A stretch of DNA of 64,000 nucleotides from an uncultured Eubacteriales bacterium (GTDB taxonomy: Bacteria > Bacillota > Clostridia > TANB77 > UBA1234), in contig CAYMVI010000004.1 of NCBI GenBank assembly GCA_964394075.1, positions 28,563-92,562 on the forward strand, in the 5' to 3' direction. Positions 13,052 to 48,087 of this stretch are shown here, one piece after another. The notes below the pieces were generated by a model that was not told the origin of the DNA, made no database searches, and was given only the letters and a program-made list of their open reading frames with translations. A program made the position numbers and the translations under genes. The first letter of the stretch is position 1. Each line of letters begins with the position of its first letter.

Positions 13052-13513
13052 TTAAATTACCTCCTTAAACAATTCATCATAACGATTACTTGTTGTACTA
13101 AATGAAAAAATTCTTTTACCATCTTCTTCAGTATCTTTTTTTATATTTATTCTAAGCACATCCTTAGGTAAATATTCTTCTATTTTTTCTCCCCACTCGA
13201 TAAGACAAATTCCTTTTTCAAAAAATTCATCTCCGCCAATTGCTAAAAATTCTTCTGGCGATTCAAGTCTGTATACATCAAAATGAAAAAGCTTCAAATC
13301 TTCCTTTAAATCATACTCATTTACTATAGTGAATGTTGGACTTGAAACTTCATCTTTCTTTTCATAAAAATCTAATATTCCCGTTGTAAACAAAGTCTTA
13401 CCAGCACCAAGATCGCCTGTCATAACAAGCACATCACCTTTTTTCAAAAGCGGTGCAATCTTGCGCCCTAAAGCCAATGTTTCTTCTGCGGAATTTGAAA
13501 TAACATCATACAT
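13052..13513 (-). CDS. tsaE: tRNA t6A ATPase TsaE (YjeE)
   Basis: Walker A TGDLGAGKT, 153 aa. Confidence 0.85.
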   Translation of the reverse strand: MYDVISNSAEETLALGRKIAPLLKKGDVLVMTGDLGAGKTLFTTGILDFYEKKDEVSSPTFTIVNEYDLKEDLKLFHFDVYRLESPEEFLAIGGDEFFEKGICLIEWGEKIEEYLPKDVLRINIKKDTEEDGKRIFSFSTTSNRYDELFKEVI

Positions 13514-13609
13514 ACAAAATAAAACTCCTTTTACATATTATTTCACGATTATTTTATACCAAATATTTCAAAGTGTAAACCCAAAAAAACGGAATCTTGT
13601 CCAAACGAG

Positions 13610-13708
13610 TGACCAAACAGGGACGCCCTCATTTGGACACTTCTCAACCAACATTTTCATGTTTGAAAGTTTTTGAAGTGTCCAAATGAGGGCGTCCCTG
13701 TTTGGTCA
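13610..13708. repeat. Palindromic repeat element, copy A: perfect 34-bp inverted repeat (TGACCAAACAGGGACGCCCTCATTTGGACACTTC) flanking a ~31-nt loop
   Basis: Arms 13610-13643 and 13675-13708 are exact reverse complements; GC-rich core in AT-rich intergenic DNA; the same core occurs at 48087-48202. Confidence 0.9.
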
Positions 13709-13711
13709 TTT

Positions 13712-14410
13712 CTAATTCATTATTTCATTTGCTTGTTCTAAAGTTATTTCTCCATACTCAAGCATTTTGTCTAACACTTGTCGTTGTCTTTGTTTGGCCA
13801 AGTCCGGATTTACTGTTGGTGCATATACGGATGGTGCATTGGGAATTCCAGCAAGCATTGTTGCTTCATCCAAATTCATATCTATTGGTTCTTTATCAAA
13901 GTATGTCATGCTCGCATCATATACAGTATAACATCCTTCTCCAAAGTAACTTGTGTTTAGATATAATTCTAAAATTTCATCTTTTGTACATTCACTTTCT
14001 ATTTTAAATGCCATAAACATTTCTGCAATTTTTCTTTCAATCTTTTTTTCCTGTGTGAAGTATGTATTTTTCGCAAGCTGTTGAGTTATTGTGCTTCCGC
14101 CTTCAACAAAACTACCTTCTTGAATATCTCGTTTTATTGCACGTGCAATAGAAATAATATCTATTCCACCATGAGAATAAAACCTTCTATCTTCTACAGT
14201 TATAACAGCTTTTTTATAATAAGCTGGCATTTCAGAAATTTCGGTATATGATTCTTTTTCTTTAATTTGCGATATCATTTCTTGAACACTTTTTTCAGCA
14301 AGTGCAGTTTCATATATCGTATAACCTTTGTATACAACTAAGCCACATGTTACAACAATAAACACTATGCAAATTAATAAAATCCCCTTAATAAAATTAA
14401 GTAACTTCAT
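13712..14410 (-). CDS. Monofunctional peptidoglycan glycosyltransferase (GT51, MtgA-like), membrane-anchored
   Basis: N-terminal TM then EDRRFYSHGGID...GGSTITQQLAKN GT51 motifs; 232 aa. Confidence 0.8.
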   Translation of the reverse strand: MKLLNFIKGILLICIVFIVVTCGLVVYKGYTIYETALAEKSVQEMISQIKEKESYTEISEMPAYYKKAVITVEDRRFYSHGGIDIISIARAIKRDIQEGSFVEGGSTITQQLAKNTYFTQEKKIERKIAEMFMAFKIESECTKDEILELYLNTSYFGEGCYTVYDASMTYFDKEPIDMNLDEATMLAGIPNAPSVYAPTVNPDLAKQRQRQVLDKMLEYGEITLEQANEIMN

Positions 14411-47526: not shown

Positions 47527-48087
47527 ATGATTAAAAAAATTACATACGTTACTGGCAACTGGGCAAAGATTGCCAGTGCTAGACAAATATTAGAACCACT
47601 TGGAATCGAAGTAGATAATATCAAAATGGATACTATAGAAATCCAAGCTGATGACGTAGAAGACATCGCAAAATACTCTGCTAAATGGGCTAGCAAACAG
47701 CTTAAATGCGATGTACTAAAAAATGATAGTGGACTATTTGTAGAATCGTTAAAAGGTTTTCCTGGACCTTATACACATTATGCAGATGATACTCTTGGTG
47801 AAGATGGTTTGTTAAAACTTTTAGCTGGCGAAGAAAATCGTCGTGCATATTTCAAAGAAGTTTTAGCCTATTGCGAATATGGCAAAGAACCAATCACATT
47901 CGTAGGAATCACACCTGGAACAATAGCATTAGAGAAGTCCGGAACATACGGATGGAGTTGGGATTTCATCTTCATACCAGATGGTTCAGACAAAACTTTA
48001 GCTTGCTATCCCGATGAAGAAAGATGGAAATTCTGGAGCTTAGATTCATACAAAAAACTAGTTGATTATCTAAAAGAAAATAATTAG
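47527..48087 (+). CDS. Ham1/RdgB-family non-canonical NTP pyrophosphatase paralogue
   Basis: MIKKITYVTGNWAKI...SGLFVESLKGFPGPYT Ham1 motifs; ATG 47527 after GAAAGGAG. Confidence 0.65.
   Translation: MIKKITYVTGNWAKIASARQILEPLGIEVDNIKMDTIEIQADDVEDIAKYSAKWASKQLKCDVLKNDSGLFVESLKGFPGPYTHYADDTLGEDGLLKLLAGEENRRAYFKEVLAYCEYGKEPITFVGITPGTIALEKSGTYGWSWDFIFIPDGSDKTLACYPDEERWKFWSLDSYKKLVDYLKENN

Follow-up and report, generated by a model that had tools for sequence, protein, structure and literature searches.

The DNA analysed here, a stretch of 64,000 nucleotides (the window), carries two copies of a long palindromic element at gene ends (Table 1). Copy A is located between the stop codon of the MtgA-like gene and the start of tsaE, upstream of both tsaE and its promoter-like site. 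Its 34-nt arm, TGACCAAACAGGGACGCCCTCATTTGGACACTTC, is repeated as the exact reverse complement on the other side of the centre. A preliminary description of this DNA had reported a pair of exact 34-nt arms around a 31-nt loop in the spacer between mtgA-like and tsaE, and both the coordinates and the gene context were found to match. The same description had noted that the arm recurs about 34 kb away. This was confirmed as copy B (48086–48203), one core arm of which is exact and the other of which has 1 mismatch. Copy B fills the 130-nt spacer between the convergent Ham1-family and ABC-F genes, and its complementarity extends to 48-nt arms (48086–48133 and 48156–48203). The number of matches to the copy A arm expected by chance was 0, as estimated from 100 shuffles. 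Because the flanks of the two copies are unrelated, copies A and B lie outside any larger duplication. Judged by the loop, the two copies have opposite orientations.

Table 1. Features at the two palindrome-bearing sites of the window (site A, between the MtgA-like gene and tsaE; site B, between the Ham1-family and ABC-F genes)
Feature	Position	Strand	Remarks
tsaE gene	13052–13513	−	
Promoter-like site for tsaE, TTTACA-17-TAAAAT	13551–13579	−	just beyond copy A
Copy A, one-sided flank GGAATCTTGTCCAAACGAG	13591–13609	+	partial unit
Copy A, arm 1	13610–13643		TGACC, A-tract AAACA, GGGACGCCC (13620–13628), then CTCATTTGGACACTTC
Copy A, centre (type-1 loop)	13644–13674		31 nt, asymmetric, small apical hairpin
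Copy A, arm 2	13675–13708		exact reverse complement of arm 1; ends ...GGGCGTCCC TGTTT GGTCA
Monofunctional transglycosylase (MtgA-like; Transgly) gene	13712–14410	−	stop codon 3 nt from copy A
Ham1-family NTP pyrophosphatase gene	47527–48087	+	
Copy B, outer arm extension AGGGACGACT	48086–48095		first two bases within Ham1 stop TAG (48085–48087)
Copy B, core arm 1	48096–48129		identical to copy A arm (0 mismatches)
Copy B, centre (type-1 loop)	48130–48159		inverted vs orthologous copy L004 in related MAG
Copy B, core arm 2	48160–48193		1 mismatch, adjoining loop
Copy B, outer arm extension AGTCGTCCCT	48194–48203		mirror of 48086–48095; present in window and L025, missing from L004
T-rich tail TCTCGTTTCAAAAA	48204–48217	+	common to L025 allele; reaches ABC-F stop codon (48218–48220, −)
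ABC-F ATPase gene	48218–50110	−	convergent with Ham1 gene

The element is non-coding, and its length is ∼70–170 bp across the family and ∼100–120 bp for the window copies. From outside to inside, every arm was observed to contain (T)G(A/T)CC, an A-tract (AAAC or AAAA plus A or G), GGGACG(C/T)CC and TCATTTGGACA; the mirror arm therefore ends with GGGCGTCCC, a T-tract (TGTTT, TTTTT or CGTTT) and GG(T/A)C. The innermost 14 nt of the arm, CCCTCATTTGGACA, were invariant in 20 of 20 arms. The centres are asymmetric, usually with a small apical hairpin, and keep the arms 4 to 39 nt apart. Most belong to one of two related types; the exceptions are those of L007a (only ∼4–6 nt) and L007b (unrelated). 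The G+C content of the arm is 53%, compared with 32.6% for the window. When folded as RNA, either strand gave one hairpin with an energy of −74 to −94 kcal/mol (z = −13 to −18), and the DNA folds of the window elements had energies of −48 and −60 kcal/mol. A single arm alone is an imperfect palindrome (−9 kcal/mol as DNA, z = −4.5); the intra-arm pairing showed no covariation across copies, and the common TGACC variant breaks one of the pairs. The window elements had no match in Rfam at gathering thresholds. Matches to miRNA precursors were found far below threshold on both strands; these were generic hairpins and gave no family information. Integron attC sites, CRISPR repeats, retrons and DGR hairpins were also considered and rejected, as arrays were lacking, no RT, integrase or cas gene was adjacent, and housekeeping genes surround the elements.

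Further copies were searched for with an exact 21-nt arm core in one genome per species of ∼185,000 species (GTDB representatives). The core was found in only one of these genomes, the MAG CAZEVD01 (‘uncultured Eubacteriales bacterium’), which is a different MAG from that of the window and is 82–84% identical to it where the two are syntenic. Seven loci with 8 copies were identified in CAZEVD01, among them the orthologue of copy B (L004), which gives 10 copies in two species together with the two of the window. Hence the palindrome is indeed present in more than two copies, and the earlier proposal of a propagated, multi-copy element of the MITE/REP/BIME kind was supported by the occurrence of these copies at unrelated gene ends in two species and by the polymorphism of the sites described below. 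The arm core was absent from viral contigs in the scan and from plasmids and phages in a BLAST search. A single-arm match in a JGI metagenome had neither a mirror arm nor a common flank and was probably due to chance. Literature searches on REPIN/RAYT systems in Firmicutes and on MITEs at Clostridium terminators revealed no account of the family.

The copy counts (2 in the 64-kb window and at least 8 in the fragmented MAG) are minima, because short-read assemblies break at the element. Each Logan k-mer contig reaching site A (L010–L015 and L020–L023) ended ∼30 nt inside the arm. Since k-mer assemblies stop at fixed points in these perfect inverted repeats, MAGs of the lineage are fragmented and the elements are undercounted. 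Perfect inverted repeats are also prone to mis-assembly, and since all Logan unitigs break inside the arm, it was considered whether the palindrome itself could have been made by the assembler. This is extremely improbable: independent Logan contigs (L010–L015, L020–L023) run from either flank into the arms and are identical in sequence there, whole elements are spanned at an orthologous site in two independent MAGs, and the palindrome is bordered by proper genes.

All 10 copies are intergenic, and 9 of them follow at least one gene end, most lying 0–5 nt past a stop codon or filling a convergent spacer. The stops preceding the copies include those of ileS-like, prfB and PBP-like genes. Two copies lie farther downstream of a gene end, namely L003 (39 nt, preceded by a separate canonical terminator) and L002 (∼213 nt). 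In L007a (L007 160–255), the terminal TGAC/GTCA forms the stop codons of both convergent genes, which encode an rRNA-methyltransferase-like protein (a name based on the C-terminal sequence alone) and a DUF4364 protein. A second copy, L007b (L007 895–1000), separates the opposite end of the DUF4364 gene from recN and thus sits between divergent gene starts. The DUF4364 gene, being flanked by two copies, was considered as a possible transposase gene; Pfam assigned it to DUF4364 and not to a transposase. The genes adjoining the copies are housekeeping genes that are functionally unrelated to each other.

It was found that both window sites are polymorphic. At site A, strains of the window's species-level cluster were compared over a common stretch of 1,090 nt on the tsaE side. 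The element was present in L010 and L011 (100% identical to the window) and in L012 and L014 (96.0%). L013 (98.7%) had the ancestral terminator together with another hairpin, GGGGCGTCCCC, and L009 (97.0%) had an unrelated terminator, indicating that the presence of the element does not track relatedness. On the mtgA side, L020–L023 were ∼89–94% identical and had the element at the identical junction. In the outgroup species (L016–L019, ∼87% identity), TAA was followed by TTTTCGCGACT, a terminator GGGGACAGTCCTTGTAATGT...ACATTGCAGGAGTGTCTC with T6, and the conserved tsaE promoter region. The canonical site A terminator common to the outgroups and L013 reads GGGGACAGTCC..GGAGTGTCTC, then T6. The whole stretch from the stop codon to the promoter was exchanged between alleles, including the one-sided flank of copy A, and the promoter-like site itself was kept in all of them. 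The terminator of L009 (4081–4135, AAGAAGAGCTTAAAACGATATTGTTTTAAGCTCTCTTTTT) is a third, unrelated one at this site; therefore, the site A spacer has been replaced at least twice within the species-level cluster.

At site B, L024 had a plain bidirectional terminator only. In L025, the homologous terminator was nested in a short inverted pair, GGGACACTCTT...GAAGGGCGTCCC (GGGAC..GTCCC), after which comes TTTCTCGTTTCAAGAATCA. Between the outer pieces that it has in common with L025, the window carries the full element, and in L004 the element is present without the outer piece on the ABC-F side. Altogether, ordinary terminators were observed at orthologous positions in L009, L013, L016, L017, L024 and L025. 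The element is a dispersed, non-coding palindromic repeat, which is polymorphic between close strains and stands in the positions of intrinsic terminators.

The layout of the element is that of an over-long bidirectional intrinsic terminator (A-tract, GGGACG-stem...stem-CGTCCC, T-tract). A plain terminator with the same clamp was found after lonC in a relative (L017 14910–14954, AAAGGGGACGCTCC...GGAGCGTCCCTTTT), and the A-tract/GGGACG..CGTCCC/T-tract clamp also surrounds unrelated inner hairpins. Ordinary bidirectional intrinsic terminators likewise consist of an A-tract, a GC-rich stem and a T-tract, and are located after stops or between convergent genes. Their stems are ∼5–15 bp in length, in contrast to 34–48 bp here, where the centre measures 4–39 nt. 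They also differ from the element in that its T-tract is interrupted, the same sequence is found at many loci, and a consensus terminator scan, in which the loop was limited to 8 nt and thus was shorter than the element centre, called nothing at copy A or copy B. Past CGTCCC, the T-tract has 3–5 T in 8 nt, and these are base-paired with the A-tract. The preliminary description had suggested that the hairpin may double as a strong terminator. The replacement of canonical terminators at both sites and the A-tract/GC-stem/T-tract layout agree with such a role, but the role is called into question by the weak T-tract, the failed scan and the copy between divergent gene starts. If transcribed, the element would act as a gene-end hairpin in both directions, through termination, attenuation or 3′-end protection.

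The two arms of each copy were found to change together. In the 29-nt core, five columns vary among the ten copies, and the arms agree in 49 of 50 copy-by-column cells; there are six arm haplotypes, each mirrored on both sides. Arm–arm pairing was observed in 98.5% of 334 cells, and in 6 of 34 pairs both partners had changed (14 cells). Covariation scored 0.131 compared with 0.052 in shuffles, and none of 500 shuffles reached the observed value. When the partners were slid as a control, pairing fell to 30–52%. Beyond the core, the flanks agree at chance level only, except where a further unit is nested. Such nesting was found in copy B, which has AGGGACGACT on the outside; in L002, where both flanks bear one more complete unit; in L006, where both bear an outer GGGGACGCCCTCATCCGGGAGCCATCAAG; and in L007a, where a single flank has an additional unit. 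Between copy B and its orthologue L004, the core arms are identical in 68 of 68 nt, whereas the flanks are ∼84% identical. With the two arms taken as one unit, the chance of an unchanged arm is 0.837^34, or ∼0.002. These results demonstrate that the element arms are sequence-constrained and strictly co-varying.

Arms that remain unchanged between species with such diverged flanks, together with the invariant inner arm and the co-varying arms, are also consistent with a non-mobile host cis-element under selection, i.e. a protein-binding palindrome, a structured 3′-UTR RNA or an RNase III substrate, multiplied by ordinary duplication. Nevertheless, this is very unlikely. Strains that are 96–100% identical at housekeeping loci differ in whether they have the element, and ordinary terminators can stand in its place. 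The arm spacing ranges from 4 to 39 nt, the neighbour genes are functionally unrelated, and Rfam offered no family, only the sub-threshold generic miRNA hairpins on both strands.

The centre of the element appears inverted between copy B and L004, with an alignment score of 17 when flipped and 2.5 in the same orientation, and no such change affects the asymmetric outer flank on the Ham1 side. This inversion is read from short-read assemblies, in which the orientation between perfect repeats is resolved only if k-mers or reads span the arm; the CAZEVD01 contigs bear SPAdes-style names. Replication template switching at inverted repeats has been reported to cause arm homogenisation, spacer inversion and arm expansion (PMC8604942, PMC13100816, PMC8794818). 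All three outcomes of this process, known as quasipalindrome correction, were also observed here, and template switching probably keeps the arms perfect. Within the palindrome, it would keep the arms identical, invert the centre and extend the arms outward. However, template switching is a process and not an element family, and alone it does not account for dispersal to unrelated loci. An invertible DNA switch (inverton) was also considered, as the centre inverts, and was rejected, because the inverting segment is only 26–36 nt, there is no recombinase nearby and no promoter was called inside.

A similar pattern was noticed by eye in the plain terminators at site B. Those of L024 (1731–1770) and L025 (1072–1108) look homologous only with one loop flipped, and the flipped match involves compensatory stem changes. 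Going by such sequence comparisons, spacer inversion may be general for the gene-end hairpins of this lineage.

As to how the element reaches new gene ends, a classical MITE would be a deletion derivative of a DDE-type insertion sequence that is mobilised in trans via its long terminal inverted repeats. The element is small, non-coding, multi-copy and polymorphic, and does have long terminal inverted repeats; its TG...CA ends and the inner TGGACAC may be reminiscent of IS3-family ends. We nevertheless regard this origin as improbable. The preliminary description had looked to insertion-like boundaries and target-site duplications, and in this respect it was not borne out. No target-site duplication was observed at any of the 10 copies, the matching flanks being inverted complements, and the alleles were replacements or nestings. 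In ∼185,000 genomes, no locus was found at which single arms bound a longer element, as judged by an exact 21-mer that a diverged parent would escape; the sole single-arm match, L003, was accounted for by a point variant. Plasmids and phages had no match. In addition, arm–arm covariation, nested symmetric units and the sharing of a clamp with terminators are unexpected for the terminal repeats of a MITE.

With confidence a little above even, we favour a lineage-restricted repeat of the REP/BIME/REPIN type that substitutes for terminators. The element DNA would reach new gene ends non-autonomously by a hairpin- or ssDNA-based route of this kind, which leaves no target duplication, and a RAYT-type Y1 transposase would be the most plausible enzyme. 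Group 1 RAYTs with low-copy flanking repeats have been reported in Clostridia (PMC5581495). A Y1/HUH-type ssDNA enzyme, as envisaged in the preliminary description, was not found among 900 six-frame ORFs of 259 kb including the window: a phmmer search with approximate sequences of IS608 TnpA, IS200 TnpA and an E. coli RAYT as queries gave only noise (E > 0.8). Pfam analysis of the genes adjoining the copies and of the unassigned window ORFs revealed housekeeping genes, T4SS remnants and DnaD/DnaC-like genes and no transposase or recombinase.

The element resembles REP/BIME/REPIN repeats with RAYT (TnpA-REP) of Proteobacteria in several respects. Those repeats are likewise extragenic and located mostly just past gene ends. 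A REP unit is an imperfect palindrome of 25–35 nt, comparable to a single arm here, and inverted doublets of such units form long hairpins. As in REPINs, the inverted doublets here evolve as one unit, with mirrored haplotypes and 98.5% pairing. Modular clusters of single, tandem and inverted units, lack of target duplication and strain-polymorphic sites are also REP-like, and transcription attenuation and mRNA 3′ protection are known REP/BIME roles. REP/REPIN systems have tens to hundreds of copies per genome and a single-copy RAYT flanked by repeats. The arms here are perfect and much longer (34–48 bp), the copies counted, as minima, are few, and the host belongs to Clostridia. The explicit A-tract/T-tract terminator layout and the nesting of hairpins within hairpins are further differences. 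Moreover, a conserved 5′ tetranucleotide of the GT[AG]G type is not evident, as the arm ends read (T)G(A/T)CC, and no RAYT was detected in the 259 kb.

Two other explanations of the spread were considered. In the first, no dedicated enzyme is needed: a short A-tract/GGGGACG clamp is common to the terminators of the lineage, template switching or ectopic conversion at the clamps copies inner sequences between terminators, and the alleles are then swapped between strains by homologous recombination of the flanks, so that the ‘family’ is a by-product of palindrome dynamics. The same clamp was found around unrelated inner hairpins (L005 500–585, L025 and L013) and in the plain terminator of L017. 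The replacement-like boundaries without target-site duplication fit this explanation, as do the independence of element presence from flank relatedness within the species cluster and the observation of loop inversion, arm homogenisation and arm extension together. It is nonetheless unlikely. At site A, the replaced segment overshoots the clamp in both directions; to place identical 34-nt arms and related asymmetric loops at 10 unrelated loci, long-range copying from only 10–13 nt of homology would have to occur repeatedly; and the invariance of the inner arm suggests sequence-specific recognition.

The second explanation, which we hold to be quite unlikely, is that the elements are self-propagating ‘terminator modules’ entering the tips of hairpins, either those of ordinary terminators or those of their own copies, or that they spread by transposase-free inter-locus template switching at the A-tract/GGGGACG clamp. 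Either route would explain the hairpin-in-hairpin nesting (copy B, L002, L006 and L025), the replacement-like alleles and the missing target duplications. If true, it would represent an undescribed mode of repeat dispersal and terminator turnover.

The element was also compared with two other groups of small repeats. Correia elements (CREE/NEMIS) of Neisseria are ∼100–150 bp in length, have long terminal inverted repeats and are strain-polymorphic; near gene ends, their transcripts form hairpins at which termination or processing can take place. They also have a TA target duplication, an IHF site and hundreds of copies, none of which was observed in the elements here. BOX, RUP and SPRITE of Streptococcus pneumoniae are small modular intergenic repeats of Firmicutes that form stable hairpins. 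BOX has a variable number of internal modules, and no transposase is known for it. The sequences of these repeats are unrelated to that of the element. In BOX, the modules are ordered A-B-C and pair imperfectly, and RUP is accompanied by a parent IS and a target duplication, neither of which was detected for the elements here.

The flanks of the copies are variable except for a one-sided CGAG/CGACT string. Short strings of this type lie on one side of A, B, L001, L004 and L006. The one-sided flank of copy A resembles both these strings and the tail (..TCCTTGTAATCAAATTTTCGCGAGT) of another repeat, ‘family 2’. In relatives, this repeat precedes terminators at unrelated gene ends as tandem units of ∼34 nt, GGGGACAC(C/T)CCTTGTAATCAAATTTTCGCGAGT. 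It was found after mtgA and after lonC in L016 (10702–10790 and 14935–15010), in L005 (1–105) and in L013 (1–110), and no unit was found in the 64-kb window. Family 2 and the palindrome flanks have in common a GGGG-ACN-CCCC mini-hairpin and a TTTTCGCGAGT module, and the family 2 tail, TTTTCGCGA(C/G)T, directly flanks the L003 element. A sister palindrome in L005 (490–596, GGTCTCAAAAAGGGACGGACTCAAGGT.GACCACT...mirror...TTTTTGAGACC) has the same outer A-tract/GGGACG clamp and a different inner arm, and is followed by a T-run and a separate canonical terminator. Taken together, units with a GGGGAC core form a BIME-like mosaic at gene ends.

The element adds a member to a known kind of bacterial repeat and does not constitute a new kind of system. 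The features worth attention are its nesting inside other hairpins and its swapping with terminators. If the REP/BIME/REPIN-like reading holds, gene-end palindromes of the REP/BIME type extend to an uncultured Clostridia lineage, and the sites described here are a clean natural example of terminator-for-repeat swaps between near-identical strains. The same example would show long stems that stay perfect across species, spacer inversion and arm growth, as template switching predicts.

Several observations concern other parts of the window. An inverted repeat at 56199–56356, with 27-nt arms of 89% complementarity (ATAAAAATATATATCAAGGTGCGGAGC / GCTCCGTACCCTGATGTATATTTTTAT), encloses 104 nt of C-rich sequence, with a small ORF to one side and a DnaD/DnaB_2-like gene to the other, and its sequence is unrelated to the palindromic element family. 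It lies within a region (53524–58454) that contains conjugation remnants, namely a short TraG-D_C/TrwB-like ORF and a T4SS pilin-like ORF, followed by DnaD/DnaB_2-like and DnaC/IstB-like genes; this region may be a decayed integrated mobile element. Homologues of the Ham1-family protein with 82–84% identity were found on unrelated contigs (L026–L029). They were considered as comparators for site B and proved uninformative, being not syntenic with it and located beside a Cas9-Cas1-Cas2 locus and Abi/GmrSD defence genes. One homologue cluster, P0132, is labelled Mycoplasmatota. These observations suggest horizontal transfer of the small Ham1-family gene.
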